DNA of 63,488 bases from Candidatus Timburyella stercoris (GCA_904384255.1 CAJFJP010000001.1:21415-84902); one strand, 5' to 3'; positions 36,642 through 62,904 are shown, counted from the stretch's first letter. Notes: a model not told the origin generated them from the letters alone. A program made the numbers and translations.

Positions 36642-36659
36642 GATCTGTGATATTCACTT

Positions 36660-44307: not shown

Positions 44308-44319
44308 GCCGTACCCCCG

Positions 44320-45255: not shown

Positions 45256-45358
45256 AAGGTAGGTTCACCTCTCTTTTTTGAAAAGTCAACGGATATCCCA
45301 TCAAAAGCTGAGACGTCCGCTGCGAGTAAATGTGTATGCAATCGTAGTATCCCGCTTT

Positions 45359-46807: not shown

Positions 46808-46831
46808 CGCTCATATCCTCCCATCCGTGTT

Positions 46832-47173
46832 TTATAAAATTGTCCAGATATATAACGGCGCAGTTAACGTGAAAATCAAGCAGGCGAATAAAATCGCCGG
46901 AGCCGTGAATTCAAACTGTCCGTGCTTGCGGTAATCAAAGTACGCTGTGCCGAGTTTTACAAAGAATAGAATGGCCAGAATCATATCCACCACAGGAAAG
47001 ATCACATTGTTGACGACTGTCTTGATCTGCGTCTGTGCCTGCGTCCATGTGTTTTCAATCGCTCCTGCCACATTGCCCTCCGCACCTTCCGCATAAATAG
47101 GAAGGGTGGACGCCGATATAACCACAAGCAACACCGCAAAACAAAGAAGGATTTTTAAGGGTTTCTTTTTCAT
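46832..47173 (-). CDS. VirB2/TrbC-like small secreted membrane protein
   Basis: ATG at 47173 overlaps the upstream stop (ATGA). Signal peptide MKKKPLKILLCFAVLLVVISAS followed by two TM helices. The longer track ORF (to 47299) overlaps the upstream gene. Confidence 0.45.
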   Translation of the reverse strand: MKKKPLKILLCFAVLLVVISASTLPIYAEGAEGNVAGAIENTWTQAQTQIKTVVNNVIFPVVDMILAILFFVKLGTAYFDYRKHGQFEFTAPAILFACLIFTLTAPLYIWTIL

Positions 47174-47511
47174 TGTGCATTTCCTCCTAACACTTTTTGA
47201 ATCTCTTTTTCTCTGATTGTTTTCGTGCGGATATTGAGGTTTTTGCAGAACTGTATCTCGCCCTGCATTCCTTCGGTTAGGGTATCGCCAAATACCCACA
47301 TCTCATCGCAAAACCACAGCAGGGACAGCCCCGCCGCCATCCCGATTTCGCGCTCTTTTGGGTTGCTGTCGTTAAGGCACTCCGCATAGAAATGCGGCAC
47401 GACCGGAGCCGTGCCGCAGACAAGCGCATATTTGGTGTATTTCCTGACCTGTTCCAGATTATCCTGTACATTACCGCCAAGCGGAGCGCAGATATACACC
47501 TTTTTCATCAT
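47170..47511 (-). CDS. DUF4406-like (nucleoside 2-deoxyribosyltransferase-like fold) protein
   Basis: KVYICAPLGG...VPHFYAECL...ELWVFGDTLTEGMQGEI pattern. The family call is from memory. Confidence 0.45.
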   Translation of the reverse strand: MMKKVYICAPLGGNVQDNLEQVRKYTKYALVCGTAPVVPHFYAECLNDSNPKEREIGMAAGLSLLWFCDEMWVFGDTLTEGMQGEIQFCKNLNIRTKTIREKEIQKVLGGNAQ

Positions 47512-50500
47512 TCATTGTCATCCTTTTTCTTTTTAAAATACATAATACCGCAGGAAACAAGACCGCCCAAGGCAACCGCACCGAGCCCGATCCAGAAGCC
47601 GAGATTAGATTCATCACCCGTCTGCGGAACTTCCAGTACAGGCTTTTTCTCATTGGTCATTTCTGCCTTGATAATCTGTCCGTCCTCTATAATCTCAAAC
47701 GCATGAGACGTTTTATCAAGGATATATCCATCCGGTGCGTCGAATTCCTCATAGGTGTACTTTCCGTAACGGAGTGTGAATTTGGCAATACCATTTTCAT
47801 CGGTATAACCTTCCGCTACGATTTCACCTTTTTCATTCCTGATGCGGAAGCCTGCATCGGGCAGAAGAGCTCCATTAGAAATGTCCTTCTTGATGAGTTC
47901 CAGTTCTCCGGTGATCGGCTTATTTGTAAAGCCAACGCCTGCCTCATTCTCCACAGCTACGGTTTCACCGTCTGTGCGAATCTCGAAATAATAGTAATTC
48001 TCATCTCTGAGGAAGCCTTCCGGCGCCGATTTCTCATGGAGGAAATATCCGTTATAACGAAGCTCATCCATACGGTATACGCCGTCTTCCATTTCCGTCA
48101 TTTCACCGATGACCTTGTCAATTTCCGCATTGAATTTCTCATCGCCATCCACATCTACATAGACTTCAAACACGGCTCCGGTCAGCCGATGGTCGGGATA
48201 TTCCGCATCTACCTTTGTTGTCTGTACGCTGCCGACAATAAAACGGTTTTCAATTTCAATCTCTACGATTTCCTCGTTTTCAGAGATGGTCACCGGATAG
48301 ACAGATTCGTTCAAGACAAACGCAGGGGCGGGCCTCAATTCACGGATTACCCAATCTCCGAACGGTACATTTTCAAAGCCAAATATACCGATTTCATTGG
48401 ACTCGGCGGTAAGAATAGCCGTATCCTCAGTAAATTCCGTTTCGTCTGCCTTAAACAATCCGAAGGTCGCGCCGCAGACGACAAAGCCGTTCTCGTCAAT
48501 CTTCTTACCGATGACCGAGCCTCTGATGAGCTTGTTCTTCATCGGCTGACCGTCATTTACGGAAATGCTGACAACTGCCGTTTCCTGTCCTGCATAAGCA
48601 AATTCCACAGGATAGGTTTCATCGCTGATGAGATAATGCTCATCGGTACTGTATTCCTTCACATAGAGCTTTGCATCGATCGGCAGATCTGTCGCAAAAA
48701 CAGCTTTGCCGTTTTCATCACAGGAAGCAATTTCAATAAGACCGTCCTTCGGGATAGCCATGCCGTCTGCCGCCGTGATATCCTCGGCTGCATACAAGCC
48801 GAACTGTACCGAGAGGATTTCGCCGTTCTGTCCGATACCGAACTTCTCGTCCTGCTCCAATACTTTGGAAAGGTCAATCTGCACACGCTGGCGCTCGTTA
48901 TAGAATGCGGAAAAGACGGATGTAATTTCCACTTCCTGTCCGGCATAGACAAGCTCCACCGTCTGCGGTTCTGGATTCAGCACCATGCCATGCGGTGCTT
49001 CAATTTCTTTGATTTCAAATTTGCCGAGGTACAGCGGTTCGCTTGTAGCAGTGCCATCCTTGCCTGTGATGATTGTCGCTACCACCTCTCCGGCAGAATA
49101 GCGGAGTGTACCGTCCAAAGTATAAACATCTTCCACGGCGGTGATTTCATAAACTGCACCTGCAAGACCGGATACCGAATAGATCGGCTGATAGATGCCA
49201 TTTGATTCCGATACGGAAGAGAACACCTCGCCGGACTTGCTGACCGTGATCGTGCCTTTCTGTGCAATATTATGCTTTTCAACCGTTACAATAGCTTCTG
49301 TTCCATCAACAACAAAAGGCACAGGCTCTGAGCTTAAGACATATCCATAGCAGGTCTGTACCTCAACCAGTTCGTAATTTCCATACGGGAGTTTTTCAGG
49401 CATCATGAGTTTGCCTGTGGTATCGGTATAATAGGTATCAATATCCACAGGTGTTGGGTAGTTGACGTGCTGCACGACATATTCGCCGGTATCGGCGTTT
49501 CTCACCTTAAAGCCGATGCCTGCAGCCGGGATAATCTTTCCAGTTTCCATATCTTTTTTAACGATTTCGATGAGAGACTGGAAGGTGGTGTTATTAATGA
49601 GATAACGGTAAACTTTGCCGTCCTCATTTACGAACACATCGAAGGCAGGCATCATCTCTTTGCCTTCCCAGCCTTTGGTCTGCTTAACCGTATATACGCC
49701 ATACGGCAGGTCTTTGGTCTGGGCAAAACCGTTTTCATCGCAGACAAGGTAATCCTTTTCGCTGCTTTGGGCGGCATTATAAGAGCCTGCGGATTTCAGA
49801 TATACCTCAAATTCAGCGCCGGTTTCCGGCGTTTCGATCTGTGTCGATCCGTCATCACAGTGTTTGATAAGGGTAATCTTTCCTTTTCTGACAGTTTCCA
49901 AGACATCGTTTGCCGTAAGGTTATATTCAATCGTATAAAGTTCCGGCTCTGCGCCCACAGGGTAAATAGTTTCGTTCAAAAGGTAACCTTCGCTCGGTTC
50001 AATCTCACGAATTGACCAATCCGAATCACAGACATAAAAATTTGTAGTAAACTGACCATTGGCATCAGTACAATAGGTGTCGATAAGCTGGTCGCCCTTG
50101 AAAATACCATATTTCGCTCCGGCAAGGGAAGCATCACCTTGCGGCGTTCCGATTTCGGAATCCGACTTGGTGACGGTTACCTGGAATTTTTTGAGGATAT
50201 TGTGGAAACTGTTATTCGTTACCTTATTCCATTCCACTGCTGTCACCTGATTGTCGGGGATGACATAACGGATTGGCGTATCCACCTCGGAAAGCACATA
50301 GCCCGTCCCAATGAGGACGTCCGTAAATTTCGCTACGCCCGTGCTGTCGGTAACAGCGTATTCATCCACTGTAAGACCGGAGAACGAGGTGCCGTAAAGA
50401 TGAAATTTCATGCCCTCCGCAAGACCGTCCTCCGAGGTTTTGGTGACTATCAAATCACCGCGCCTCAGCTTGTTGCTGAAATTGACGGTGGAGGTCTGAC

Positions 50501-51788
50501 CGGATACAATCGTTACTCTGCGAACCTCCTGTGGTTCATACTGCTCATAGGACTGCTCGGTCACAGTATATATACCAGGACGGAGGTTGTCGATCTGAAT
50601 TTCTCCGTTACTTCCGGTTATGACATCCTTGCTCACATCATTGCCGCTGATATGGAAGCGAATGCCGTCCACTTTTCCATCCTCGGAGGTTTTTACGATT
50701 TTCGCAGAGCCAGGAATTTCCTCGTTTACAGCATGGATTGTAATGGTGGCATTCGGTGTGTTTTTATCCAGCGTCACCGTCCATTCGGATTTTCCGCTGC
50801 TTTGATAATTCTTCGGAAATACGGTTTCTGTAATTTTGTAAGTGCCGTAAGGGATTTTATCCTCACTCTTGGCATAACCGTTGCTATCGGTAGGGCCAAT
50901 TTCATATTTTTTCCCTGTCTGCGTGTTCACAGCGAGAAAGACCGCGCCTGCAAGCGCCTTGCCGGTATCGCTCTTTTTGTACACCTCAATAGCGCCATCA
51001 TCTGCGAAGTAGTCTTCCGGTAAATGATAAAAACCGTTTGGAAATGAAGCTTTATCGCCGTTACTGGCATGTCCCATACCCTCCACGGTGGATATCTCTG
51101 GGCCACGCTCATTCCCAACATGGATTATAAAATGCTGTCCACTATAGGTTCCGGCATAGATTGCGATATGCACATGGATGTTGGTAGAATTTCCGAAAAT
51201 AATAACGTCGCCGGGGACAAGCCGGCTGTAGTCCACATTAGAGGAACTTGTGCCGACCTTTTCGATTTTACCCTCATCCGCCAGCTCGTTCAGTGCATTC
51301 TGCCATGTGACAACCGACTGAGAATTTAGTCCGGTGGCTTGGACGGCGTCGGTAACAAGGCTTGTATCCACGCCTTCAATGTTCGGAAGATAATTGCAGA
51401 TGAAATAAGTCACAAATGAAGCACAGCATAAACCGTACTGCTCAAATTTTGTAATATTCGGCGCAAGTCCTGTAATAGTAGAACTATCGCTAATGGTTTC
51501 CTTGCCGGACAAGGAAAGTCCATAGGAAATATTCGAGAGGATGTTCGGTGCATTTGTGGCCAATTTCGATCCGTAATGACCTGATTGATAAATCGTGCCA
51601 TTGTTTTTCTGTGTCTGAACATCATATCCGGTATATTCCAGCGCACGGAGAATGCTGCTATCCAGCATTTCTTGAGGGATGTCGGATGCAGGGGCCGCAA
51701 ACGCCGTAAGAGGCAATGCAGTCAAAACCATCATGACTACCATTGCAATCGCAGCTATGCGATGTGAAAATCTTTTTTTCTGATTCAT
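47508..51788 (-). CDS. Giant cell-wall-anchored protein: signal peptide, NlpC/P60-type hydrolase domain, about 10 Cna-B/SpaA-like repeats, LPXTG-like anchor
   Basis: Signal peptide ...LTAFA. GLCCASFVTYF ... HVHIAIYAG ... IIHVG is a Cys/His hydrolase pattern. Repeated GAVF/GAKY/GATF beta-sandwich units. The C-terminus is VPQTGDE, a TM helix, then KKKKDDNE. Confidence 0.85.
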   Translation of the reverse strand: MNQKKRFSHRIAAIAMVVMMVLTALPLTAFAAPASDIPQEMLDSSILRALEYTGYDVQTQKNNGTIYQSGHYGSKLATNAPNILSNISYGLSLSGKETISDSSTITGLAPNITKFEQYGLCCASFVTYFICNYLPNIEGVDTSLVTDAVQATGLNSQSVVTWQNALNELADEGKIEKVGTSSSNVDYSRLVPGDVIIFGNSTNIHVHIAIYAGTYSGQHFIIHVGNERGPEISTVEGMGHASNGDKASFPNGFYHLPEDYFADDGAIEVYKKSDTGKALAGAVFLAVNTQTGKKYEIGPTDSNGYAKSEDKIPYGTYKITETVFPKNYQSSGKSEWTVTLDKNTPNATITIHAVNEEIPGSAKIVKTSEDGKVDGIRFHISGNDVSKDVITGSNGEIQIDNLRPGIYTVTEQSYEQYEPQEVRRVTIVSGQTSTVNFSNKLRRGDLIVTKTSEDGLAEGMKFHLYGTSFSGLTVDEYAVTDSTGVAKFTDVLIGTGYVLSEVDTPIRYVIPDNQVTAVEWNKVTNNSFHNILKKFQVTVTKSDSEIGTPQGDASLAGAKYGIFKGDQLIDTYCTDANGQFTTNFYVCDSDWSIREIEPSEGYLLNETIYPVGAEPELYTIEYNLTANDVLETVRKGKITLIKHCDDGSTQIETPETGAEFEVYLKSAGSYNAAQSSEKDYLVCDENGFAQTKDLPYGVYTVKQTKGWEGKEMMPAFDVFVNEDGKVYRYLINNTTFQSLIEIVKKDMETGKIIPAAGIGFKVRNADTGEYVVQHVNYPTPVDIDTYYTDTTGKLMMPEKLPYGNYELVEVQTCYGYVLSSEPVPFVVDGTEAIVTVEKHNIAQKGTITVSKSGEVFSSVSESNGIYQPIYSVSGLAGAVYEITAVEDVYTLDGTLRYSAGEVVATIITGKDGTATSEPLYLGKFEIKEIEAPHGMVLNPEPQTVELVYAGQEVEITSVFSAFYNERQRVQIDLSKVLEQDEKFGIGQNGEILSVQFGLYAAEDITAADGMAIPKDGLIEIASCDENGKAVFATDLPIDAKLYVKEYSTDEHYLISDETYPVEFAYAGQETAVVSISVNDGQPMKNKLIRGSVIGKKIDENGFVVCGATFGLFKADETEFTEDTAILTAESNEIGIFGFENVPFGDWVIRELRPAPAFVLNESVYPVTISENEEIVEIEIENRFIVGSVQTTKVDAEYPDHRLTGAVFEVYVDVDGDEKFNAEIDKVIGEMTEMEDGVYRMDELRYNGYFLHEKSAPEGFLRDENYYYFEIRTDGETVAVENEAGVGFTNKPITGELELIKKDISNGALLPDAGFRIRNEKGEIVAEGYTDENGIAKFTLRYGKYTYEEFDAPDGYILDKTSHAFEIIEDGQIIKAEMTNEKKPVLEVPQTGDESNLGFWIGLGAVALGGLVSCGIMYFKKKKDDNE

Positions 51789-51875
51789 GGTATCCGTTCC
51801 TTTCTGATTTAAAATAAAAAAGGAACCTCTGAGTTTTCAGAGATTCCATAGTTTGATGCATATTGGTTTATGATT

Positions 51876-52709
51876 TTATCCGCCGTAGTTTTCTGAAGAG
51901 ATGCACACGCAGCAGTACCACATACAGGTTGCTGCGTCATACGTGCAGCCGACCGCCATATACCTGTACTCATCGCTGCCGAGATATTTCCAGTGGTTCA
52001 TGCTGTTTTTGAAACCTTCAGCAATTTTCCTTGCGATATCATCCGCTGTACCTGCCCAATTGCCTTTGGCGATTGCCTCACGGTTGAATCCACGGTAATA
52101 GCTGTCTTCGGGGTATCCATATTTTCCCATATCCACATACTCGCCGTATTGAAGCTGCGTGCAGACGTCCAAATCTTCATCGTGTGAAAAGTTTGTAATC
52201 AACTGACGGCTGCGATATTCTGCAACCTGAGTCAGTCCGGGAAGTACCTTCATCGGAGTGCTGCGGTATTCGTTAATATATTGTGCCGTCAATCCCTGTA
52301 CTTCTGTTCTGTCGGGAACAGACGGTTTCGATTCTGTGGAGTTCGGCGGCTCTGTAGACTGAGGATTCCGTTTCGGAGGTTCGGTCAGAGCAGGCGGGGA
52401 CGAGGCAGGCTTTTGTTCTTCCGGCTGTGCAGGCGTTCTTGATTCAAAAGTCTGCTCTGGGGAAGAGATTTCTGCCGGACTCTCTTTTTCTTCTGCCGGT
52501 ATCTGCGGTTTGGAGGCGCTGGCTGCCGGATTCTCCGATTCATCCGACTCGGCAGGGATGTCTCCGCCTTCTTCGTTGTCCGATGTTATATTCGCTGTCA
52601 CCGTACTGCCCAGATTTTCTTTCTTTTCTTTTTCTGCGGTATTTCCGCATCCGGCAAGACCTGCAATGAGGACTCCGCATAAAACTGCGGCAAATATTCG
52701 TTTTTTCAT
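51876..52709 (-). CDS. Lipoprotein with a Pro/Glu/Ser-rich linker and a CAP/SCP-like C-terminal domain
   Basis: Lipobox LAGC. Low-complexity linker. C-terminal ...NSMNHWKYLGSDEYRYMAVGC... resembles CAP (YkwD-like) domains. Confidence 0.6.
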   Translation of the reverse strand: MKKRIFAAVLCGVLIAGLAGCGNTAEKEKKENLGSTVTANITSDNEEGGDIPAESDESENPAASASKPQIPAEEKESPAEISSPEQTFESRTPAQPEEQKPASSPPALTEPPKRNPQSTEPPNSTESKPSVPDRTEVQGLTAQYINEYRSTPMKVLPGLTQVAEYRSRQLITNFSHDEDLDVCTQLQYGEYVDMGKYGYPEDSYYRGFNREAIAKGNWAGTADDIARKIAEGFKNSMNHWKYLGSDEYRYMAVGCTYDAATCMWYCCVCISSENYGG

Positions 52710-52789
52710 GTCTGTTCACCTTCCTTTAACCACAAGCATACCAAAAAAAGCACAAAAGTCCAGACCTTTTTTGAGACTCCGAAAAAGTG

Positions 52790-53176
52790 CTACATATTCG
52801 GTGTTATGCCCTGTGATTCTTCCTCGGATTCGTCCTCAGACTCGTCCTGCTGTTCTTCCAGTGCCTGCTCGTAGGCTTTCATTACCTTTTCGTTCAGCTC
52901 GGTTCTCGCCTCCGCAGTCACGGCATGAAACACATCGCTGTATCTTTTATTGCCCTCCGCATTGATATAACTGTTGGAGGGCATGGATACGAATAAGCCT
53001 TTCTGTGAATCTACAACCTTGATGCCGTGAATGGCGAATGCACCGCCGATGTTGGCGCTGGCGAAGGCTTTGATATTACTGCCTTCATAATCATTGAGCC
53101 TGTCTATCCGCACCTGAACAGAGGGCAGTTTCGGTTTCTGTGCTGCCTTCGGAGCAGTAGTTCTTTTTGTTGCCAT
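52790..53176 (-). CDS. SpoVG family protein
   Basis: IKAFASANIGGAFAIHGIKVVDSQKGLFVSMPS...DVFHAVTAEARTEL parallels the SpoVG core motif. Confidence 0.7.
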   Translation of the reverse strand: MATKRTTAPKAAQKPKLPSVQVRIDRLNDYEGSNIKAFASANIGGAFAIHGIKVVDSQKGLFVSMPSNSYINAEGNKRYSDVFHAVTAEARTELNEKVMKAYEQALEEQQDESEDESEEESQGITPNM

Positions 53177-53196
53177 AGGTTAAATTCTCCTTTCCT

Positions 53197-53871
53197 TTAC
53201 CATGCCTGAAAAAAGAAGCCTGCACGCGATTCGATTTCTTCAGTCGGTATTTTTTCGGGTTCTGCAAACTTTTCTGCAAATCTCTGCATTTGTTCATCGG
53301 TAAGAGAACAGATACTTTCTCCGGAAAATCCGGCAATAAAGCCAGGGCCGACAAGGACATCTCCCTCAATCTGGCGGTTGCCCTCCATACCGTTAATTTT
53401 GCCTTCTTCATTGATAACGATAACCGTATTGTCCTCGTTCTCGATATACTGAATCAAGCCGTCAACCGCACGCTGCTGGCTTTCCAGCGTATTCGGTATT
53501 TCCGATTCATACGGCGCACGGTGCGGTTCCAGCACAAGCACACGAATCAGATTGTCGGGAACATGGGCGGATGATTTATCAAATTCCACCTTTTGTAATC
53601 CGATCCTATCACAGAAAAATGCGCCGTCATCGGTGGTGACAATATCGCTGACGGACAGGGAATGTCCACGGTGCAGGCGATGACCTTCCGTATTAAAAAG
53701 CTTATAAATATCTTCAAGATTTTCGCAGTCTGCATCTCCTATGAACACCCGGTCATAAATGCCGGAGTCAATCTTTGCTGCACCCTGAAATTTTTTGATA
53801 TCTTTCAATCCCATAAATTTGACACGGTTCTTATCTCTGTCGGAATTGATCTGATAAATTTGAAACCGCAT
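53197..53871 (-). CDS. YodL-like plus DUF3846-like two-domain protein
   Basis: N-terminal MRFQIYQINSDRD...GHSLSVSDIV (YodL-like). C-terminal IRVLVLEPHRAPYESEI...INEEGK (DUF3846-like). Calls are from memory. Confidence 0.5.
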   Translation of the reverse strand: MRFQIYQINSDRDKNRVKFMGLKDIKKFQGAAKIDSGIYDRVFIGDADCENLEDIYKLFNTEGHRLHRGHSLSVSDIVTTDDGAFFCDRIGLQKVEFDKSSAHVPDNLIRVLVLEPHRAPYESEIPNTLESQQRAVDGLIQYIENEDNTVIVINEEGKINGMEGNRQIEGDVLVGPGFIAGFSGESICSLTDEQMQRFAEKFAEPEKIPTEEIESRAGFFFQAW

Positions 53872-54600
53872 TTACATTCCTCCCATCGTCATGCCGTCTA
53901 TTTTCTCCGGCTGCTGTAACTCGTTAAGTTTTTCCTTTGCCCATTCGGGGAGATACTCCATTTTCAGTATTCCGATAAAGTCGTTTCGCTGAAAATGAGT
54001 TTCTTCTCCGTCTTTCAAAAACCGCCCGAATACCTTGCGGCCTCTTGCGCCGGGGGCGCAGCCAAATCCGCTTTCTGCAAGGAACAACTGATCCACCGGT
54101 GTTTTATACTGATCCTTTAAGACATCTCCCCGAAGGACAAGAACCTTTCCTTCATAATTAAGCCGCCCATACCGCTCGGATTCGCAGTGAGAGACGTCGA
54201 AGAGATCAAGCTCCTGCCAAAGTTTTCGGTTTTGATCTATAAATATATTCGTCAGCCCCGGATGCGCGTCTACACAGAAATGCCAGCGGACATCTTCGTG
54301 CGGGATATAGAACTGCCTTGCCCATGTTTTGTTTTTCTGCGAAAATCTGCCGTCATCCATTTTCTCCTGAACCGTATTGGCAAGCACCCAATTCACGCGG
54401 TCAAAACCGTACTGTTCAATAATAGGCTCGGCACAGTCATTCAGACGTGCATTTTTATAATCATAGGCGCTGTTTATTGCCTTTTCGATGGTTCTTGCAC
54501 AGTCACAGTTTTCCTTGTAGCTTTCACGCCACAAATCCCTTTCATTATTCCGCACGGCTTCTTCCAAAGACCAAATATACAATGGTGTGTGTTCAGACAT
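53872..54600 (-). CDS. DUF3849-like protein
   Basis: PLYIWSLEEAVRNNERDLWRESYKENCDCARTIEKAI pattern. The start abuts the downstream gene. Confidence 0.45.
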   Translation of the reverse strand: MSEHTPLYIWSLEEAVRNNERDLWRESYKENCDCARTIEKAINSAYDYKNARLNDCAEPIIEQYGFDRVNWVLANTVQEKMDDGRFSQKNKTWARQFYIPHEDVRWHFCVDAHPGLTNIFIDQNRKLWQELDLFDVSHCESERYGRLNYEGKVLVLRGDVLKDQYKTPVDQLFLAESGFGCAPGARGRKVFGRFLKDGEETHFQRNDFIGILKMEYLPEWAKEKLNELQQPEKIDGMTMGGM

Positions 54601-54901
54601 TTAGGTTTCCTCCTTGCTTTTCCGCCCATTTGACGGATAGGTGAATGAGGGCGGCGCGCTGTTCGGCTTCTGAAAGACCGTTAAGAAAATCAAGAAGCGT
54701 CATCTCGTCGCCACATCGGTCGGGTAATTTCTCTCTTTTGCAGCTATCACAGATTTTTTCTCGCTTTACAATTACACTTTTGCCGTCTGCCGATTCGGTG
54801 AAAGATAACACATCATTAAAGGAAAAACCTACGCGCTGGCGCATTTCATACGGGATGGTAATACGACCATGCCTACCTAAGATGCGGTACATGGTATTCA
54901 T
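54593..54901 (-). CDS. AbrB/MazE/SpoVT family DNA-binding protein
   Basis: GRITIPYEMRQRVGFSFNDVLSFTESADGKSVIVKRE is a swapped-hairpin barrel motif. Confidence 0.65.
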   Translation of the reverse strand: MNTMYRILGRHGRITIPYEMRQRVGFSFNDVLSFTESADGKSVIVKREKICDSCKREKLPDRCGDEMTLLDFLNGLSEAEQRAALIHLSVKWAEKQGGNLNV

Positions 54902-55173
54902 CTGTCCACCTCCGCATCGTCGCAGTCTACATTACAGGGACAGCTCTCACAGTCATTCGTGCAGTCAATCTCGCATAAAGGGCAGGTTTCGCAGTCCCCA
55001 TCGCAGACGAAATCGTCGGTATCGTTCGTGTTCCGTATGACAAGGAGGTTTCCGTCCGTATACATTTCAAGAACGCCGTCTGTCAGAATACCCACTTCAA
55101 TCAGCAACTCAAGTGGCACAGACAACAGCACCATTTTCGTTCCTATTTTCTTATTTTGCATGATATGATACAC
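54898..55173 (-). CDS. AbrB-like protein with a Cys/Asp-rich C-terminal tail
   Basis: LSVPLELLIEVGILTDGVLEMYTDGNLLVIRN is followed by DDFVCDGDCETCPLCEIDCTNDCESCPCNVDCDD (10 Cys in 31 aa). Confidence 0.45.
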   Translation of the reverse strand: MYHIMQNKKIGTKMVLLSVPLELLIEVGILTDGVLEMYTDGNLLVIRNTNDTDDFVCDGDCETCPLCEIDCTNDCESCPCNVDCDDAEVDR

Positions 55174-56129
55174 TCCTTTAAGATTTTTTCGGTTTCTTCA
55201 GCATTCAGCTCATTTTCCATCTCAAACAGAGTAAGTTGTCTTGCTTTCTGCCGTTCTCGTTCATAGAAATCATAATTGGCGATTAACAGTTCGGGGAATT
55301 CTTTTCCCGCTTCGTATTTCTGCGCCATCGTGTGAATGCGGGTAAAGCCAAATTGATTGTAATTCTGGTACAACTCACGGATTTCCGGGCAGTCGTTATA
55401 GGACACCATCCATTTGCCTTTGGTCTGTGCCAGTGTGTCATGCAGGCGCACATGGTCGTTCCATGTGAATTCGCACTCGTACACATACTCGCTAGTGAAA
55501 TATGGAGGATCACAGTAGAAGAAAGCATCCGGTCGGTCGTAGTGCTTAATCAGCATCTCAAAATCCTGATTTTCTATGACGGTATTAGCAAGCCGTTTGC
55601 TGAGTTGCTCGATAAAGGTAAACAGTATCGCAACATTGAACGGCTGACAGGCGAAGGATTTTCCGCCACTGGAATAGCTGTATCGGATGAGTTTTAGGAA
55701 CATCACCGCCCGGCGCAGATCGTAGTCCTCTTTCGAGGCTTTATACAACATTCTGATTTCCTCTGCTTTCGGCGCAGGGAGCAAGATACTTGTAAGGTCA
55801 AGTTCCTGATTTAAGAATTCATCGGTGAATTCCAGCTTTTCAAAAAAACGCTTGAGGACTACAAAGTCATCTCTTGCGTTCAGATTGAGGAAGCCGAGTT
55901 CACGGATAAATTCCATCGGTCTGTCACGCATACAGCGGAACAGATTGACAAGATTTGCATTGTAGTCGTTATATACCTCTAACTTGTCGGGGATAGCCTT
56001 GCCCAATAAAACGGCTCCTGAACCGCCGAAGGGTTCGATATACCGTTCGTAACTTAACGGAAACAAGGCATACAGAATATGCAGGATGGAAGTTTTGTTT
56101 CCTATCCAACTGACAGGGGTCTTGATCAT
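55143..56129 (-). CDS. Orphan Dam-type (D12 class) N6-adenine DNA methyltransferase
   Basis: WIGNKTS...YIEPFGGSGAV (motif I region) and FYCDPPYFTSEY (motif IV). No adjacent endonuclease. ATG at 56129 follows AGGAGG. Confidence 0.85.
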   Translation of the reverse strand: MIKTPVSWIGNKTSILHILYALFPLSYERYIEPFGGSGAVLLGKAIPDKLEVYNDYNANLVNLFRCMRDRPMEFIRELGFLNLNARDDFVVLKRFFEKLEFTDEFLNQELDLTSILLPAPKAEEIRMLYKASKEDYDLRRAVMFLKLIRYSYSSGGKSFACQPFNVAILFTFIEQLSKRLANTVIENQDFEMLIKHYDRPDAFFYCDPPYFTSEYVYECEFTWNDHVRLHDTLAQTKGKWMVSYNDCPEIRELYQNYNQFGFTRIHTMAQKYEAGKEFPELLIANYDFYERERQKARQLTLFEMENELNAEETEKILKECIISCKIRK

Positions 56130-56359
56130 CACCACCTCCTTGTGGGGATATCAACCGCCCTGAAAAAAGACCGGTACCAATCGTTATTCAGAGCGATTGA
56201 TATCGGTTCGTCAGAATTTGTTGTTTAGTTCCTACTGGAAATTTTTGAAACTCCCGTTCGTAGTGGCTGGCATGGTTAACCTGTATGCAGCAGAGTATCG
56301 TTCCTGCCAGACAGCCGCCAATCAGTAACCTGGCCATCAGCCCTGCGAGTTCATTTATA

Positions 56360-56704
56360 TCATATCATCATCTCTTCATTCTCAGCATAAAGGCTTGCAT
56401 TCCGAATAGTATCCTCTCCGAGTTCAGAGAGCAGCCTTTTGAAGTTATCCTCATCATAGCAACTCTGAAAACCAAAGTCTTCACAATACTGCTCATATTC
56501 CGAGACATCTTTGCCATCCTGAAGCATGGCTTCGTTCAGTGTAAGCCACACCTTGCCTTTTTTCAACATACGTAGAAGGATGTTGGAAGTCCTACGATCT
56601 GATCACACTGAAAATCCAGCGTAATCCGGCGTGGTGTGTATATCAAAGGTATCGGCATTAGCAATAAGGGCATCTCGTTTTGCGTAGAACTCTTTAATAG
56701 TCAT
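56360..56704 (-). pseudogene. 115-codon ORF interrupted by one in-frame TGA (56603-56605)
   Basis: ATG at 56704 overlaps the upstream stop (ATGA). Reads MTIKEFYAKRDALIANADTFDIHTTPDYAGFSV-TGA-SDRRTSNILLRMLKKGKVWLT..., in the same frame as the track ORF 56360..56569. Confidence 0.4.
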
Positions 56705-57285
56705 AAACGCGTTTCCATTCCTTCGTACTCATCCATTTCGTCATCCTCGGTGGATGTGATATTGACATATTCGCCGATGATATTTAGTGCCTCAGAGTAA
56801 CTACCTGCGGTTTCGGTGATGCGGTCGTACATTTCGTTTGCCTGCTCGGACATTCCGTTTCTCCGCAGCGTTCTTGCGGCAATCCCCATCAGGTTGAAGA
56901 TGTTGCCGTCCTGACCAATCAGCGGACAGTCCGGTTTCTGTCGTTCCTGCTGTTGGGCACTAAAACCGCCGAGACGGTTCGGAACATAATCCGAAAGCCA
57001 TGTACCGCCGAAAGCTGCGTGAGAATGCAGCCGCCATACGGCAAGCCTGCCCATATCCAGCTTTACATTGTCCTCAAAAGGAAAAAGTAGACAGGTCATA
57101 CCATCATGCTCAAATGAAGAGCAATTTTCAAATTTGCTGCCATCAAGCAGAATCTTTTCTTCGGTCAGTATATCGTTGATACCGTCCTGCCATTCCCGCA
57201 AATCACCGCCGCACCCCTGCAAAATAAGGCCTTCGCTGTCCTTCATTTTCCGAAGGTCATCTGTGGTTATTGTTTTGATACTCAT
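56701..57285 (-). CDS. Hypothetical protein (194 aa)
   Basis: ORF with a 4-nt overlap to the upstream gene. No motif recognised. Confidence 0.5.
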   Translation of the reverse strand: MSIKTITTDDLRKMKDSEGLILQGCGGDLREWQDGINDILTEEKILLDGSKFENCSSFEHDGMTCLLFPFEDNVKLDMGRLAVWRLHSHAAFGGTWLSDYVPNRLGGFSAQQQERQKPDCPLIGQDGNIFNLMGIAARTLRRNGMSEQANEMYDRITETAGSYSEALNIIGEYVNITSTEDDEMDEYEGMETRL

Positions 57286-58844
57286 AATTGCATTCCTCCA
57301 AGCTTCTGTTCATTTTTTTCTTCCTGCCCCTCGTCCTGTGTAAAATCGGTTTCCATGAATTCTCTCGGTGTCAGATCGTAGCCGAGGAAATTGGGAGAGG
57401 TGTCATCTGTAAAGGAAAGATACCCCTGTTCACGAAAGTCCAGCAGTTCTCTCATTAGTACCGTACCGCCATGATTTACACCGACTTTCGGTTCAATGGA
57501 GATAAACCGTCCTTTTTCATCACTGTATCGCAAATCATAGGCATATAAGCCTTCTGGGATTTTCTCCGGCAACATTCTTCCATTTGAAAATAAAGCCTTG
57601 TGGTTAAGCACTTCAATCACATCTAATTTTTCATCGGTGAGAACTTGCGAGTTCAATTCTTTAATTTCTGGTTCGTCATAAGCCACCGGTTCATACAGGG
57701 AATGACCTCTGGCGGAAATCACTCCATACTCCGTACAGGACGCACCGAGCCGATGAAGTAATCTTTTGCCTTCGTTTCTTGTAAACAGGCCGTCCAGCCA
57801 TTTGCTGTCAATCCGGGCATCCAAAAAGCGGCGGAGATAATCTTTGAAAAAAGTGCCTTCGTCATTGGAATAGTAGGACAATTCATATTCATCCAAATGC
57901 GCGACGTCATCCAAAAGTCCGAGAACATTCAAATGCTCAAGATGTGGTTCTGCCTCCAGCACCGCTTTGAATTTGACTTGGTCTGACGGCGGCATATCCC
58001 ACATCATTTCAGCAAGGTGGTTGAAATACTCAAAGTCATCCATATCTCTGAAATTGCTCTCTGTAATCTGCGGTATAGAGGATTCAAAGCCTATACATTC
58101 ACAGTCTTCAATAGCAATCGCTTGATGCCTATGTGCAATTTCTGACGCTGTTTCTGTTGTAGCGGGAAGGCTTATCCATTCGTCCTCAGCTATCTGTAAA
58201 CGGAACGCAAACCACTCGGACGGTTCTTCGGCAGGCAGCGTTTTGCCGTCATAGATTTCGAGCATTTCATATTCTCCGGCAACCACATAAAAGCCGTTGA
58301 TATATACGCCGCCTTCGCTTTCTCTCTGTAGTTTTCCGATCTGCTTTCTGTTCAGCAGGTACAAGGCATTGTCGGGAACACTGCTTACATCCTCATGCAT
58401 ATCGTTTTCGATGACAAACTGACCGAGTTGTTCATCGTTACCCACACCGGCTGCAATCATAATCTCATCCAGCCCATAAGTGGTATTGATTAAATCCTTT
58501 ATACTGATGATTTCGCCCTCATGTTTCTCAGAAACGACTCTGCCGATTACTGCCTGCAGCCCAAGCTGTTCTTCAAATCCCAAGGAGGCAAGCCGTTTTG
58601 CAAAGAAGTTTAGTTCATCCAGCGTTGGAGAATCCAGCCGCACATCCGAAAGTTCCGGCAGAAGGTCACAGTCCAGAATCGAAACATCCTGATATTCATT
58701 TTCTCTGTCGATAAGCCTTAACTTCTGCAAGGCGTCACGAATTTCATGTTCCTCGGCAGGCAGTTCGAGTGTTACGTAATAATATCTGTCCTGACTGGGA
58801 GATGTGGTCGTGAGTTCGACTGCCATTTGTTTTTTCATCTTCAT
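57282..58844 (-). CDS. Hypothetical acidic 520-aa protein, paralogous N-terminal module shared with 59688-60371
   Basis: LDELNFFAKRL...IKDLIN...LGQFVIEN...IYDGKTLP is mirrored by LDELNYLAKRM...LKDLIN...IGREYLLN...LYNGKTFP in the 227-aa protein. Confidence 0.55.
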   Translation of the reverse strand: MKMKKQMAVELTTTSPSQDRYYYVTLELPAEEHEIRDALQKLRLIDRENEYQDVSILDCDLLPELSDVRLDSPTLDELNFFAKRLASLGFEEQLGLQAVIGRVVSEKHEGEIISIKDLINTTYGLDEIMIAAGVGNDEQLGQFVIENDMHEDVSSVPDNALYLLNRKQIGKLQRESEGGVYINGFYVVAGEYEMLEIYDGKTLPAEEPSEWFAFRLQIAEDEWISLPATTETASEIAHRHQAIAIEDCECIGFESSIPQITESNFRDMDDFEYFNHLAEMMWDMPPSDQVKFKAVLEAEPHLEHLNVLGLLDDVAHLDEYELSYYSNDEGTFFKDYLRRFLDARIDSKWLDGLFTRNEGKRLLHRLGASCTEYGVISARGHSLYEPVAYDEPEIKELNSQVLTDEKLDVIEVLNHKALFSNGRMLPEKIPEGLYAYDLRYSDEKGRFISIEPKVGVNHGGTVLMRELLDFREQGYLSFTDDTSPNFLGYDLTPREFMETDFTQDEGQEEKNEQKLGGMQL

Positions 58845-58853
58845 TCCTCCGTC

Positions 58854-59567
58854 TTACATAGAGATGGTCGGAGCAATTGTTTCTTCTGACCATTTAGTTT
58901 TTATTTGGAAATGCTCATCATGAAATAGGTCTTGACTGATATTCGTAATTTCCTGTCCGAGAAAATCCTCCGCACTGATTTCAGAGCCTCCTATCATGAG
59001 GGATTTCAGCGTACCGTTCAGAAGCTGCTGTCCCTGTTCTGCTGACAGCCGGATATCTCCGTCCGGCGTTCGGATTTCCGTTTCAGATTTCGGGCATTCC
59101 ATAAAAAATCCTCGCAGGGTATTCCGCAGCTTTTCTTCCTCGGCTTCACGAATCGCCGCTTCCTCCAAAGCCTTGCAGACAAGGTCGCCGAAGCTGTCCT
59201 CGTCCATACACATGGTTCTGAAACGGCTGCCGAATTCTGCAAGCAGTGAGAGGTCGCTGGCATAACAGAAAAATCCACCTGCTTCACAGTCAAAGCCGAT
59301 TTTGCTGAGACTGGCATCGCTTTCAAAGGCTTTTTTGAACACAGATTCCCATTCGTATCCGCAGCCGTGTGTGTACAGACCTCGTTCCTCTATGGGATCG
59401 CCAATCTGCTCGGCGTATCGGTTGAAGGCGCTCTGACCGAAGTCGGCATATTCTTTCGTCAAGAAATCAAGTGGGAGACAAAGGCTGAACTCTCCGTTTT
59501 CATGATCTACGAGATAGAAGGGGGCATTATCACGGTCAAACGCCTCGATTATTTGTTTGTTATCCAT
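58854..59567 (-). CDS. Hypothetical protein
   Basis: ATG at 59567 follows AAGGAAG by 8 nt; I prefer it to the track start at 59600. Confidence 0.5.
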   Translation of the reverse strand: MDNKQIIEAFDRDNAPFYLVDHENGEFSLCLPLDFLTKEYADFGQSAFNRYAEQIGDPIEERGLYTHGCGYEWESVFKKAFESDASLSKIGFDCEAGGFFCYASDLSLLAEFGSRFRTMCMDEDSFGDLVCKALEEAAIREAEEEKLRNTLRGFFMECPKSETEIRTPDGDIRLSAEQGQQLLNGTLKSLMIGGSEISAEDFLGQEITNISQDLFHDEHFQIKTKWSEETIAPTISM

Positions 59568-59687
59568 TGTTGTTCTTCCTTTCTGTGATATGGTATTCAT
59601 CGTTGATTTCCTTTATTTTTTGCCCGATTGCAGTAATGACGGGAACACTCACCGCATCCCCCGCCATTTTGTAGAGCTGCCCGTCTT

Positions 59688-60371
59688 TCAGACCTGTGGC
59701 TTGTGCTTTGCAGAACTGTTATCCACGGACTCAGCGCCGATCCGTTTTAATGCTTTTCTAATGACCATATCATCATCTGGGAGGTAGACGAACTCGGTGT
59801 TACCTTCGTATTCGATTTCGCCTATCAGAAGGCACTGATCATATAAATATGGCGGAAAGGTTTTCCCATTGTAGAGTTCTTCAAACGGTCTGCTCCGGTC
59901 GGGAAACAGCAATCCGTGCTCTGTGAATATGCCTGCGCCGGATTGAAGCAATTTCCGCCCAATGACAGCATATCGTGGATCGTTCTCACCATGTGCCGGA
60001 ATACAATCATCTCTGTTCAGCAGATACTCTCTACCGATCTTGCCCATATTGCTGACATCCTGAATCAAGCTATATTTGTCGAGGATAAAGGACAGATTGA
60101 TTAAATCCTTCAATTCCGTAAAATGCTCCAGCTTCATCGCCTTATAAAACTGAAAATCCTCGTTTCCGAAGAAGTTTTCCATCCTCTTGGCCAGATAGTT
60201 CAGTTCATCCAGATTCACGAGCCGGTCTTTCAGACAAGATAGTTCCTCCAGCTCGATGACGTCCGTTACAAAGAGGGTTGCATCGTTCGGATTGTCATCA
60301 TGAAGTTCCATGAGTATAGATATAGAGAGAAATATCCGAACATGGGAATTCGATACATGCGTAATTATCAT
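59688..60371 (-). CDS. Hypothetical protein, shorter paralogue of the 520-aa protein
   Basis: See 57282-58844. The start codon is uncertain (M1 at 60371 or M21 at 60311). Confidence 0.5.
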   Translation of the reverse strand: MIITHVSNSHVRIFLSISILMELHDDNPNDATLFVTDVIELEELSCLKDRLVNLDELNYLAKRMENFFGNEDFQFYKAMKLEHFTELKDLINLSFILDKYSLIQDVSNMGKIGREYLLNRDDCIPAHGENDPRYAVIGRKLLQSGAGIFTEHGLLFPDRSRPFEELYNGKTFPPYLYDQCLLIGEIEYEGNTEFVYLPDDDMVIRKALKRIGAESVDNSSAKHKPQV

Positions 60372-60392
60372 TATATTCTACTTTTACTTTAA

Positions 60393-60983
60393 TCATTTCT
60401 TATCGTCCCTCTCTGTAAAATGGATTACACCGAGACCGAAGCGCCGGATTGCCATTGCATTGCAGATGAGAGCAAACGTTCTCGGCGGTACAAGCCCTCT
60501 ATCTGCAAGATCGCTGACCGACAGATATCTTGTGCCAAGGTACAAATCCTTTGCGGCGCAGAAAAGCGCATAGTCGTTTTCGTCTGTGTCATATAGCCGG
60601 ATTCTCTCAAAACAGATAGCATTCCCTACAACGAATTTGCTGACCGATCTCCACAGCATATAATCTGCGGTCAGAAGATAAAGGACAGCCATGAGCCTGT
60701 AGTCCTTTTTATTCTTTTTCCTGATAGTATTTTCAAATTTCCGTCTGTGCTTTTCGTTTCTGTAATCCATAGGGTCCATCTCGCTTTCTTTGATATATTG
60801 TCTGAGCCGTCGTTGAAACGAAGAATGTCTTATCCCTGCAAGGGCTTCGCTAAGAGAAACTGTTTCAGATTCGTATTCCTCCTTGCAGAGGACAATAACG
60901 CCGTGTCCTCTCGGACGGAAGTTCGGGATCATCTTCATGAATTTTTCAAGCTCGTGAAGTGAGGTGGCTTCTGTAAAATACAT
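60393..60983 (-). CDS. Hypothetical protein (196 aa)
   Basis: Long ORF in the co-directional operon. No motif recognised. Confidence 0.5.
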   Translation of the reverse strand: MYFTEATSLHELEKFMKMIPNFRPRGHGVIVLCKEEYESETVSLSEALAGIRHSSFQRRLRQYIKESEMDPMDYRNEKHRRKFENTIRKKNKKDYRLMAVLYLLTADYMLWRSVSKFVVGNAICFERIRLYDTDENDYALFCAAKDLYLGTRYLSVSDLADRGLVPPRTFALICNAMAIRRFGLGVIHFTERDDKK

Positions 60984-61075
60984 GTTTTAATTCCTTTCAC
61001 CGTAAATACAAAAGCCCCCGGATTTTGAATATAGAAAAACAAAATCCGGGGGCTTGGAATTGAGGTGTATGCCGG

Positions 61076-61732
61076 TTACATATTCTGTTGTGTGGTATCG
61101 GTCTGTTCAAAGGACGGTGGATCTTCTTTGAGTTGGGGATATCCATATTGGAGCTTTTCTTCAAGGGATTTCAGCTCCCATTCCTGTTCGTATGTCAGAT
61201 TTTCGCAGTTGTTCTGCGTATATCCTATGCATCGGCATAGGTTTGCCGCTTCATCCTCAGTAAACAGTTTGTTTTTATCCAGCAAGCCGGAGCGCGTGAT
61301 AAAGGCCTCCTTTACATAATCAAAGTCCGGGGTATAATCGCCGTGAGCAACAGAGGACTTGTCAGCACTCTGACGCCATGTGGTGAACATGAAGCCGTGC
61401 TGTTCGCTGTACATACCGGCGAGGACGATATTTCCGTATTCTGCCATTCTGCGGTATTCGGAAACGTCGGGGATTCCCATTGAGAGTGCAGTCTCATACA
61501 TGCGCACATATTCTCTGATTTTCGCCGTCTGCTCCTTCATATTTGCAAGAGCCGCTTTCCAATTGTCCGTCACGGTCTTGTCTCCGTGATATTGAAGAAA
61601 GCCGTCTTTATCCTGAGAGCAGAGGGGGATGCCGCTATAGGATATCTCCAGCCGTTTGCATTCTTCATTATATTGTCCAGTGCATCCGTATTTTGAGAGC
61701 TTCCGCAAAAGCTCCTGTTGATAAATTGTCAT
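61076..61732 (-). CDS. Hypothetical protein (218 aa), first gene of the rightmost minus-strand operon
   Basis: Long ORF with GGAGG-type SD. No motif recognised. Confidence 0.5.
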   Translation of the reverse strand: MTIYQQELLRKLSKYGCTGQYNEECKRLEISYSGIPLCSQDKDGFLQYHGDKTVTDNWKAALANMKEQTAKIREYVRMYETALSMGIPDVSEYRRMAEYGNIVLAGMYSEQHGFMFTTWRQSADKSSVAHGDYTPDFDYVKEAFITRSGLLDKNKLFTEDEAANLCRCIGYTQNNCENLTYEQEWELKSLEEKLQYGYPQLKEDPPSFEQTDTTQQNM

Positions 61733-61946
61733 GTTGGTGACCTCCTTGATTCATTTAGGATAATAAAAAAGGGCGTATGGTGTTTTTCTTTCCATACGCT
61801 GGTGGGCGGGCATTTGGTTTATTCTCTTTCTGAAAGAATAACTTGACTTTCAGTCCGATCAGAGTTTTACTACACAACGTCAGGTGTGAGCGTACCATAA
61901 GCTCCACAGCCTGCAACAAATGTACTGATTGTGAAAGGAGAGGAAA

Positions 61947-62231
61947 TTGATGAAAAAGTGGCAATTTGATCCCCGAAATCTTGAACGGTTAACGCCTCTT
62001 AAAATAGCCGAAAACCTCCGTATGCTAAGAACCTATAATTATATATGCCAAAGAGAAATTGCCGAATTGCTGAACTTAGAGCGATCCACATATACATATT
62101 ATGAAACCGGAAAGATACATCCATCGTTGTCATCATTAATGAAACTGGCCTTGCTCTATAATGTGACCACCGATTTTTTGCTTGGGATGCCACCGAAAGA
62201 GAACAGCAAAGGTTCTAAGAAGAGAAAATAA
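61947..62231 (+). CDS. XRE family HTH regulator, divergent from the transfer genes
   Basis: LRMLRTYNYICQREIAELLNLERSTYTYYETGKIHPSLSSLMKLALLYNVTTDFLLG is an HTH_3 pattern. The only plus-strand ICE gene. Confidence 0.75.
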   Translation: MMKKWQFDPRNLERLTPLKIAENLRMLRTYNYICQREIAELLNLERSTYTYYETGKIHPSLSSLMKLALLYNVTTDFLLGMPPKENSKGSKKRK

Positions 62232-62290
62232 TCTCAGATCGAACAATAAAGCTTTTACTCGCAAACTTACAGTACAATCTTTTGAACAGC

Positions 62291-62323
62291 AAAAAAGCAG
62301 ATAGAAAATCTATCTGCTTTTTT
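62291..62323 (+). terminator. Rho-independent (bidirectional-type) terminator after the XRE gene
   Basis: AAAAAA-GCAGATAG-aaaat-CTATCTGC-TTTTTT. Confidence 0.75.
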
Positions 62324-62343
62324 GCTGCTGGTATTTAGTTGCC

Positions 62344-62356
62344 GTGAGAGTTCAAA
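62344..62356. repeat. Right copy of the 13-bp terminal inverted repeat (candidate attR half-site)
   Basis: GTGAGAGTTCAAA is the reverse complement of 13335-13347. Confidence 0.5.
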
Positions 62357-62485
62357 ACATTTCGCAAAGGAAAATGTTCATTTTATATCTATGAAACGCT
62401 TTTTCGGAAAATCGTCATCTGAAATGGCGAAACCCCCGATTTTATCGGGGGTTTCATCGACAATATCTTTTTTATTGTCTTTTTA

Positions 62486-62779
62486 TGGTGCCGCTGACCG
62501 GACTTGAACCGGTACGGTATTGCTACCGAGGGATTTTCTTCACTACTCTATGTTGCCATAGCCGCCAATAAAAGCGTTGTAGTCCGGACTTTACCTTCAC
62601 CATGGATAAAAACCTTTAGGCGCGCGCCGTCAAGTCTCTACACGTTCCTGTAATCAGGCTTCGCTCGGCATAGTCCCAAACCGGGATTTTCACCGAATTT
62701 GACGCGATTCACAGGGTAGTTTCCAAACCCAGTGCTCAAACTTTAAGTCCCTTGTGTCTGCCTATTCCACCACAGCGGC
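62486..62779 (-). tRNA. tRNA-Leu(UAA) gene interrupted by a group I intron (exons 62745-62779 and 62486-62537)
   Basis: Exon 1 is GCCGCTGTGGTGGAATAGGCAGACACAAGGGACTT. Exon 2 is AAAATCCCTCGGTAGCAATACCGTACCGGTTCAAGTCCGGTCAGCGGCACCA. Joined they give an 87-nt class II tRNA with a 7-bp acceptor stem, GG D-loop, anticodon loop CUUAAAA, long variable arm, TTCAAGT T-loop and encoded CCA. Confidence 0.9.
62538..62744 (-). ncRNA. Group I intron, IC3-like, 207 nt, inserted between U34 and A35 of tRNA-Leu(UAA)
   Basis: P1 pairs exon CUU plus intron AA with the intron UUGAG, with a U-G wobble at the splice site. Core strings present: GUCAAAUUCGGUGAAA, GCCGAGCGAAGC, GUGUAGAGACUUGACGGCGCGCGCCUAAAGG, GGUAAAGUCC. 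The terminal G precedes the 3' exon. Confidence 0.85.
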
Positions 62780-62875: not shown

Positions 62876-62904
62876 ATTATACTTTTTTTAATAATCAGTG
62901 TCAA
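62876..62904 (-). promoter_or_regulatory. Consensus sigma-A promoter upstream of the tRNA-Leu gene
   Basis: Minus strand TTGACA-17 nt-TATAAT, about 97 nt upstream of the tRNA 5' end. Confidence 0.55.

Follow-up and report, generated by a model that had tools for sequence, protein, structure and literature searches.

The minus strand of the window, the whole 63,488-nucleotide stretch of DNA analyzed here, carries at 62779-62486 a split tRNA-Leu(UAA) gene of 294 nt, composed of a 35-nt exon, a 207-nt insert, and a 52-nt exon. The sequence points, with a probability that we place at roughly 0.88, to a chromosomal gene that is predicted to be expressed, that is split between U34 and A35 by an ORF-less group I intron of the IC3 type (class Leu.3Ug), and whose intron is passed on with the chromosome within a small clade of Oscillospirales-like gut Clostridia, without having been brought by the adjacent conjugative element. 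The locus is real, was correctly interpreted in the preliminary description of this DNA, and is a further member of a well-known and widely distributed intron family. The window itself corresponds to a complete metagenome contig (ENA ERZ27234786:k141_133500). The gene and its flanking signals are arranged as follows.

62779-62745, minus strand: tRNA-Leu(UAA) 5' exon, 35 nt, tRNA positions 1-34, GCCGCUGUGGUGGAAUAGGCAGACACAAGGGACUU, with the 3' end GGGACUU and U34 as U-1
62744-62538, minus strand: insert of 207 nt between U34 and A35, first base A at 62744, terminal G (omega-G) at 62538
62537-62486, minus strand: tRNA-Leu(UAA) 3' exon, 52 nt, AAAAUCCCU...CAGCGGCACCA, with an encoded CCA
62876..62904, minus strand: sigma-70-type promoter sequence TTGACA-17 nt-TATAAT, 12/12 consensus matches, about 97 nt upstream of the tRNA 5' end
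62429..62455, minus strand: GC-rich stem-loop GAAACCCCCGAUAAAAUCGGGGGUUUC, 30 nt after the tRNA, read from the sequence

The 3' exon supplies A35, A36, and the 3' half of the anticodon stem, followed by the long variable and T arms and by the acceptor strand with A73 and CCA. When the two exons are joined, the product is an 87-nt class II tRNA-Leu(UAA) with every expected arm, in which the 7-bp acceptor stem is perfectly paired, the anticodon stem has 5 bp, the variable arm is long, and CCA is encoded. ARAGORN called an 87-nt tRNA-Leu(taa) from the spliced sequence and, when introns were allowed, the same tRNA from the genomic sequence, with "intron 207" at position 35-36. By both exon joining and ARAGORN, the earlier claim that an 87-nt tRNA-Leu(UAA) is obtained by removing 207 nt between U34 and A35 was found to be correct to the base. 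The 5' end of the insert is AAAGUUUGAG, and CUU|AA pairs with UUGAG through a U-1·G wobble, as had been described. The strings GUCAAAUUCGGUGAAA, GCCGAGCGAAGC, and GUGUAGAGACUUGACGGCGCGCGCCUAAAGG, which were said to lie within the insert, were each found, and the 3' boundary reads ...GUGAAG|AAAAUC, with the expected G at 62538. From its position and its match to the consensus, we infer that the TTGACA-17 nt-TATAAT stretch is the promoter of the split tRNA gene. The stem-loop is likely to be a transcription stop; it was not called by a terminator scan because there is no separate T run after the stem.

It had been predicted that the gene would be missed by naive tRNA annotation. With default settings, ARAGORN returned 0 tRNAs in the whole 63-kb window, and Rfam at gathering thresholds returned no intron, the only RNA reported in the whole window being a pemK RNA located elsewhere. 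Since both searches were blank at this locus, the prediction is correct. Default ARAGORN and the Rfam gathering thresholds also miss the split gene in every relative that was fetched. When a short stretch was searched in E-value mode, the Rfam model Intron_gpI (RF00028) matched 62754-62565 with a score of 35.8 bits and E = 1.5e-7, against a gathering score of 50. The match spans the full length of the model and sets P1 on the exon-intron boundary. A search with this covariance model had been suggested as a check of the group I assignment; the E-value and the full-length match agree with the assignment, but the score falls short of the gathering cutoff. That cutoff is a matter of scoring convention and does not describe a feature of the structure. 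In a survey of bacterial tRNA introns (Williams 2020, bioRxiv 10.1101/2020.01.27.920355), 0 of the 12 RF00028 seed sequences are bacterial, and cutoffs of 18-20 bits were applied to bacterial tRNA introns.

A family-specific model was constructed from relatives of the intron. One genome per bacterial species was scanned for a core pattern held in common with the Azoarcus-type intron, and the split tRNAs were located by ARAGORN. Alignment A1 contains 26 short tRNA-Leu(UAA) introns, all of which are proteobacterial by their record titles. RNAalifold recovered P3, P4, P5, P6, P6a, P8, P9, P9a, and P9b from A1; P1, P2, and P7 were not recovered from the MAFFT alignment, and P7 was entered by hand as a pseudoknot for the pair counts. 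The covariance model R1 was trained on the 26 introns of A1 alone, without any sequence from Clostridia. In the window, R1 matched 62749-62539 with a score of 128.5 bits and an E-value of about 1.6e-39, covering model positions 1-227, and no second match was found over the 63 kb. The R1 score, the compensatory changes described below, the common splice site, and the agreement with curated seed sequences all support the claim that the insert is an IC3-type group I intron. The helices of the intron were assigned as follows.

62735..62747, minus strand: P1 hairpin, exon CUU (62747-62745) and intron AA (62744-62743) with UUGAG (62739-62735), wobble U-1·G8
62710..62734, minus strand: P2, irregular hairpin CAC-U-GGGU-UU-G[GAAA]C-U-ACCC-U-GUG, capped by a GAAA tetraloop, read from the sequence
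62623..62706, minus strand: P3 enclosing P4, P5, and P6, with P3 strands 62706-62701 / 62628-62623, from the model and compensatory changes
62696-62691 / 62670-62665, minus strand: P4, standard pairs, compensatory changes in relatives
62686-62683 / 62677-62674, minus strand: P5, UCCC/GGGA, pairs read by hand
62664-62662 / 62644-62642, minus strand: P6, standard pairs, compensatory changes in relatives
62658-62655 / 62650-62647, minus strand: P6a, standard pairs, compensatory changes in relatives
62587..62636, minus strand: P7 pseudoknot, GACUU (62636-62632) / AAGUC (62591-62587), 5/5 pairs formed
62622-62619 / 62601-62598, minus strand: P8, between the two P7 strands, model pairs
62542..62583, minus strand: P9, ACUAC/GUAGU, enclosing P9a and P9b, model pairs
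62576-62573 / 62566-62563, minus strand: P9a, compensatory change in every pair among relatives
62561-62557 / 62552-62548, minus strand: P9b, GCAA tetraloop, compensatory change in every pair among relatives

The insert has the features of a bacterial tRNA IC3 group I intron of class Leu.3Ug: an insertion site in the anticodon loop between U34 and A35, a canonical tRNA rebuilt upon removal, a guide-formed P1 with the U·G wobble, omega-G, a core of P3-P4-P6 and P7-P8, and covariation in homologues. P1 consists of 5 bp with a 3-nt loop. As read from the sequence, the guide UUUGAG (62740-62735) is the complement of CUU/AAA at the ligated exon junction, which accounts for P1 plus P10, so that the 3' exon can be held by this guide as well. 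The P2 hairpin is kept in the relatives under different sequences; this was judged by eye from the alignment rows, and the pairs were not counted by a tool, because a 1-nt alignment offset breaks the column register. Standard pairs are found in the window throughout the modeled P3, P4, P6, P6a, P7, P8, P9, P9a, and P9b. P5 is the exception, since one of its three window pairs in the register of the model (A58-A71) is unpaired. P7 is the helix that holds the guanosine-binding site. The conserved core strings of J3/4, J6/7, and J8/7 agree with the curated seeds for bacterial tRNA introns, among them the Azoarcus-type Ile2 and the cyanobacterial Leu seeds. No ORF was found inside the 207-nt intron, which thus lacks the homing endonuclease of a mobile group I intron. 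Minimum-free-energy folding of the intron gave z = -1.16 and recovered only P1, P4/P5, P9a, and P9b; a weak energy-folding signal is common among ribozymes that contain a pseudoknot.

The following course of splicing may be proposed. On the evidence of the sequence, the precursor would probably be transcribed from the consensus promoter at 62904-62876. The guide 5'-UUUGAG-3' would pair with the exon CUU, the U34·G wobble would mark the 5' splice site, and the same guide could pair with AAA of the 3' exon to form P10. On the evidence of sequence and covariation, the core from P3 to P8 together with the P7 pseudoknot would form the guanosine pocket, and the GAAA (L2) and GCAA (L9b) tetraloops are placed where IC3 introns use loop-receptor contacts. 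By the established group I mechanism, free guanosine or GTP would attack after U34. The terminal G (62538) would then occupy the same pocket, the 3'-OH of U34 would attack the 3' splice site, and ligation of U34 to A35 would yield the mature tRNA of 87 nt and release the intron.

The intron could instead be a genuine one that needs a host protein or chaperone, or one that is spliced conditionally (with the level of GTP, for example) and acts as a control point for the decoding of UUA. The minimal size of 207 nt and the short 5-bp P1 with its 3-nt loop are in keeping with such a requirement, and a review (PMC3984707) describes group I introns for which protein helpers are required. No candidate cofactor gene was found beside the locus, however, and the locus is not syntenic among the carriers. 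The Anabaena tRNA-Leu and Azoarcus tRNA-Ile introns, which are the closest well-studied relatives, splice themselves in vitro without protein. We regard dependence on a helper or on conditions as unlikely and retain the reading of a self-splicing intron.

The closest classical counterpart is the cyanobacterial and plastid tRNA-Leu(UAA) intron, which shares with the window the same gene, the insertion point CUU|...G|AAAA between U34 and A35, the U-1·G wobble, the terminal G, the IC3 core, the P7 pseudoknot, and the absence of an ORF. The two differ in the P4/P6 strings, which are UUCGGUG/GCCGAGCG in the window and CUCAGGG/CCUGAGCC in the cyanobacterial seed Sel1.Leu.3Ug, and in the host, which for the window would be an Oscillospirales-like Clostridium. 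The window intron is also shorter (207 nt) than the Anabaena tRNA-Leu intron, which is about 250 nt. The Azoarcus-type tRNA-Ile(CAU) IC3 intron (seed Aol6.Ile2.5Ug) has the near-identical core strings GUCAAAUUCGGcGAAA, GCCGAGCcAAGC, and GUGUAGAGACUaGACGG, nearly the same size (about 205 nt), a GAAA-capped P2, and a GNRA-capped P9. It resides in a different tRNA and is inserted after position 5 of the anticodon loop, whereas the window intron is inserted after position 3. The outer P7 pair shows a compensatory switch, with U-A in the window against A-U in Azoarcus, and P9 of the window has three parts (P9, P9a, and P9b) in comparison with that of Azoarcus. Crystal structures of the Azoarcus-type intron are cited in PMC3984707.

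The tRNA-Leu(UAA) introns of Proteobacteria (Burkholderia, Paraburkholderia, Dokdonella, Stutzerimonas, and others) have the same gene, site, and architecture as that of the window, with about 65% identity in the shared columns. In many of them P7 is GAGCA/UGCUC, in contrast to GACUU/AAGUC in the window; among Proteobacteria, GAGCA/UGCUC takes the place of GACUA/UAGUC. In a distance tree, for which there are no bootstrap values, the window is found apart from the proteobacterial introns in a separate clade with gut Clostridia MAGs.

The scan of one genome per species gave at least 120 matches, and the counts that follow are from the matches listed. At least 50 other tRNA-Leu(UAA) genes from several phyla are split at the identical site, GACUU|...G|AAAAUC, and U-1 and the terminal G are present in 50 of the 50 comparison tRNA-Leu(UAA) introns among the matches listed. 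The carriers of a split tRNA-Leu(UAA) in these matches are mostly Beta- and Gammaproteobacteria, together with an Armatimonadota MAG and Leptolyngbya; split tRNA-CAU, tRNA-Pro, tRNA-Phe, and tRNA-Arg genes were listed as well. In a Ruminococcaceae gut MAG (L087) the intron is 211 nt and the gene as a whole is 84.7% identical to that of the window; in an Oscillospiraceae MAG (L096) the identity is 76%. Williams 2020 (bioRxiv 10.1101/2020.01.27.920355) reports 5292 tRNA introns across phyla and treats Leu.3Ug as a "classical" class. The suggestion that such an intron is unusual in Clostridia was thus overstated, given the size of that survey and the close relatives that occur in human-gut metagenomes as well as in MAGs of Ruminococcaceae and Oscillospiraceae. 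Among the papers searched, none was found that describes tRNA introns in Clostridia. The Leptolyngbya locus (L076, DATJEM010000446.1, 2828-3247) is a 420-nt tRNA-Leu(UAA) intron with two model matches. A twin intron was considered for this locus and rejected, as a reading of the sequence gave one intron whose P6 is enlarged by about 200 nt of inserted sequence.

The same core pattern was found at 36 loci in viral contigs, 24 of which are split tRNA genes with introns of 187-257 nt (13 CAU, 5 Leu-UAA, 2 Ser, 2 Gln, 1 Tyr, and 1 UUA-anticodon "stop" call). Introns of the tRNA-Leu(UAA) type that were missed by ARAGORN are present in three further viral contigs (L135, which is IMGVR_UViG_3300045988_167216, and L142 and L163, also from IMG/VR) and in a Bacilli MAG (L034, JAFZWP010000001.1). 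In each of these four introns, an HNH endonuclease ORF immediately precedes P2 and the 3' strand of P1. Other tRNA genes (Ala, Ile) adjoin the introns in the viral contigs. The HNH-bearing introns are probably mobile members of this family that occur in phages infecting low-GC Gram-positive bacteria. They share the tRNA and the core with the window, at 67-75% identity depending on the columns compared, but they sit in phage tRNA arrays and carry the HNH ORF, whereas the window intron is ORF-less and, by its setting, chromosomal.

The fold was evaluated in relatives outside of the training set. A scan of metagenomes with the exon-P1 junction provided eight further loci, and R1 identified the intron in all eight, seven at 122.8-132.2 bits and one, cut by a contig end, at 81 bits. 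These loci were combined with L087, L096, and the window in an alignment of 10 distinct rows, none from the training set. Over the 10 distinct rows, standard pairs make up 96.9% of the cells, a percentage that is somewhat inflated because the alignment was fitted to the model. Changes on both sides, which are unaffected by the fitting, occur in 25 of the 50 pairs in the same rows. None of 500 shuffled controls reached the observed pairing values, and sliding the partners by 1-3 columns left 30-43% paired. Compensatory changes were observed in every pair of P9a and P9b, in several pairs of P3, P6, P6a, and P8, and also in P4, and the outer P7 pair changes from U-A to A-U in one relative.

A relative of the locus is found in the contig L133 (JABLTR010075771.1), which is syntenic with the window at 85-88% identity over 5312-11826, 94% over 62486-62914 (tRNA, intron, and promoter), and 85% over 63095-63488 (the upstream gene). 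L133 has about 0.3 kb in place of window positions 12452-62485 and retains the tRNA and the intron. The exons of the two are identical (87/87), and the introns differ by six substitutions and two small indels. By our own mapping onto the helices, these changes affect the loops L1, L6a, and L8, the junction J4/5, and the pair that closes the P5 loop, and the remaining one converts U·G to U-A in P9a with preservation of the pair. Judged from these two sequences, the pattern of differences is as expected under selection for the fold.

These comparisons bear on whether the gene might be a decaying pseudogene with a dead ribozyme relic, UUA being read by an intact tRNA-Leu(UAA) elsewhere in the genome. 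No other tRNA was found in the window or in the portions of related contigs that were retrieved, so these provide no support for sole-copy status, and the Rfam score under the gathering cutoff could be taken as a sign of decay. A relic would not be expected to keep exons identical to those of L133 while the flanking genes are only 85-88% identical, nor to confine every intron difference to loops or to changes that preserve a pair. The strong compensatory covariation across the clade, the perfect promoter upstream, and the intact catalytic-core helices, U-1·G, and terminal G also argue against it. A pseudogene is therefore very unlikely, and a functional split gene is the reading that we favor.

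The preliminary description placed the end of an integrative conjugative element (ICE) about 130 bp from the tRNA, and the element was delimited as follows.

13335..62356, no strand assigned: integrative conjugative element of about 49 kb, with the perfect 13-nt inverted repeat TTTGAACTCTCAC at both ends

The left copy of TTTGAACTCTCAC is at 13335-13347, 53 nt past the last recombinase gene, and its reverse complement is at 62344-62356 within an imperfect inverted repeat of about 55 nt. The right end lies 130 nt away from the 3' end of the tRNA, in agreement with the earlier estimate. Pfam domains in the interval of approximately 13.3-62.36 kb include a MobL relaxase, a T4SS coupling protein, a TraG/VirB4-like ATPase, and three serine recombinases, in addition to a SpaA-repeat surface protein and restriction-modification genes. 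The relaxase, the coupling protein, the T4SS ATPase, the recombinases, the defined ends, and the absence of the region from L133 are the features of an ICE, and the conjugative element most likely spans 13335-62356. A look-up of the last ICE gene for another genomic context returned the same strain context only, and the placement of the end is for this reason based on the inverted repeat and the comparison with L133.

Similarity between the window and L133 ends exactly at the last base of the tRNA (window 62486, L133 9403, the CCA end). Nothing in L133 corresponds to the 130 nt from the tRNA to the ICE repeat, in which the hairpin after the tRNA lies. The region 3' of the tRNA-Leu(UAA) gene may be a recurrent insertion hot spot.

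It might be supposed that the adjoining conjugative element or a phage introduced the intron, or even the complete split gene. The element ends only about 130 nt from the tRNA, the similarity to the ICE-free L133 stops exactly at the tRNA 3' end, and related HNH-bearing introns are known from phage tRNA-Leu(UAA) genes. For the ICE, this origin is already contradicted: the tRNA lies outside of the terminal inverted repeats, and L133, without the element, shares the tRNA, intron, promoter, and upstream gene with the window. Since L133 lacks the conjugative element and yet has the intron, the element is not the source of the intron, which the comparison of the two contigs indicates to be chromosomal. 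With regard to a phage, the window groups with the chromosomal copies from gut Clostridia in the distance tree (no bootstrap values). Import by either route is the least probable of the alternatives and highly improbable overall, and the reading of a chromosomally inherited intron is maintained.

Several other features of the element and its surroundings were observed. A pemK RNA motif (RF02913) is located inside the ICE at 18216-18332 on the minus strand, with 61.3 bits against a gathering score of 34.8 and a long insertion in its first hairpin, beside small ORFs at 17707-18063 and 18573-19100. Cargo genes on the minus strand at 45359-46807, 57282-58844, 58854-59600, and 41116-42660 encode anti-defense or conflict domains, namely Tad4-like (a Thoeris inhibitor), LPD28 polyvalent-protein, Imm51 immunity protein, and HipA-like kinase domains. 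Further genes of the ICE encode two DNA methylases and a type III-like restriction helicase-endonuclease (19946-25202; 55143-56135).

To the left of the element, tandem 54-nt repeats are found on the plus strand at 12292-12345 and 12393-12446, 85% identical and 101 nt apart, with similar sequences in L133 at about 9035-9081. Each 54-nt unit contains a hairpin, CCTGGAACGCG...GCGTCCAGG, after a TTG..AAAAAA promoter-like stretch, and a search of the repeats against Rfam with E up to 0.1 gave no match. Similarity to L133 stops at 12451, just past the second unit. The following 0.9 kb or so (12452-13334), up to the ICE left repeat, has no counterpart in L133 and includes an ORF at 12717-13154 on the minus strand that encodes 145 aa with an N-terminal zinc-ribbon-like CxxC...CxxC. 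This interval is either a separate small insertion or a part of the element.

The relationships of the intron were summarized in the distance tree of model-aligned cores, which has no bootstrap values. The window and L133 are sister to L087, L128, L129, L130, and L134, which come mostly from human-gut samples. In the same tree, again without bootstrap values, the window and L133 are not nested within the phage HNH introns or the proteobacterial groups. A phage origin of the Clostridia clade was considered and is unsupported by this tree. The flanks of the window are not syntenic with the MAGs L087 and L096. Based on the closest relatives of the tRNA and the intron, the host is probably a member of the Oscillospirales-like Clostridia.

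We tentatively suggest, as a possibility toward which we lean somewhat less than evenly, that the window, L133, L087, and L128-L134 constitute a distinct, vertically inherited IC3 subclade of Oscillospirales-like Clostridia, largely from the human gut and not explicitly described, in which the split gene is the only tRNA-Leu(UAA). If the split gene were indeed the sole tRNA-Leu(UAA), the decoding of UUA in abundant gut anaerobes would hang on self-splicing by a ribozyme. Annotation, tRNA-complement, and MAG quality checks would then systematically score tRNA-Leu(UAA) as missing.

The locus provides no new mechanism and no new kind of element. A Clostridia lineage is now documented within the range of the classical tRNA-Leu intron, and genomes annotated with default ARAGORN or with the Rfam gathering thresholds would seem to be without a tRNA-Leu(UAA). 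The presence of the family in many phyla and in phage contigs, among the matches listed, bears on the debate as to whether these introns are ancient or laterally spread. At 207 nt, about the size of the Azoarcus ribozyme, the intron could serve as another minimal model ribozyme. The value of the finding is mainly in annotation and in the mapping of the classical tRNA-Leu intron into gut Clostridia.
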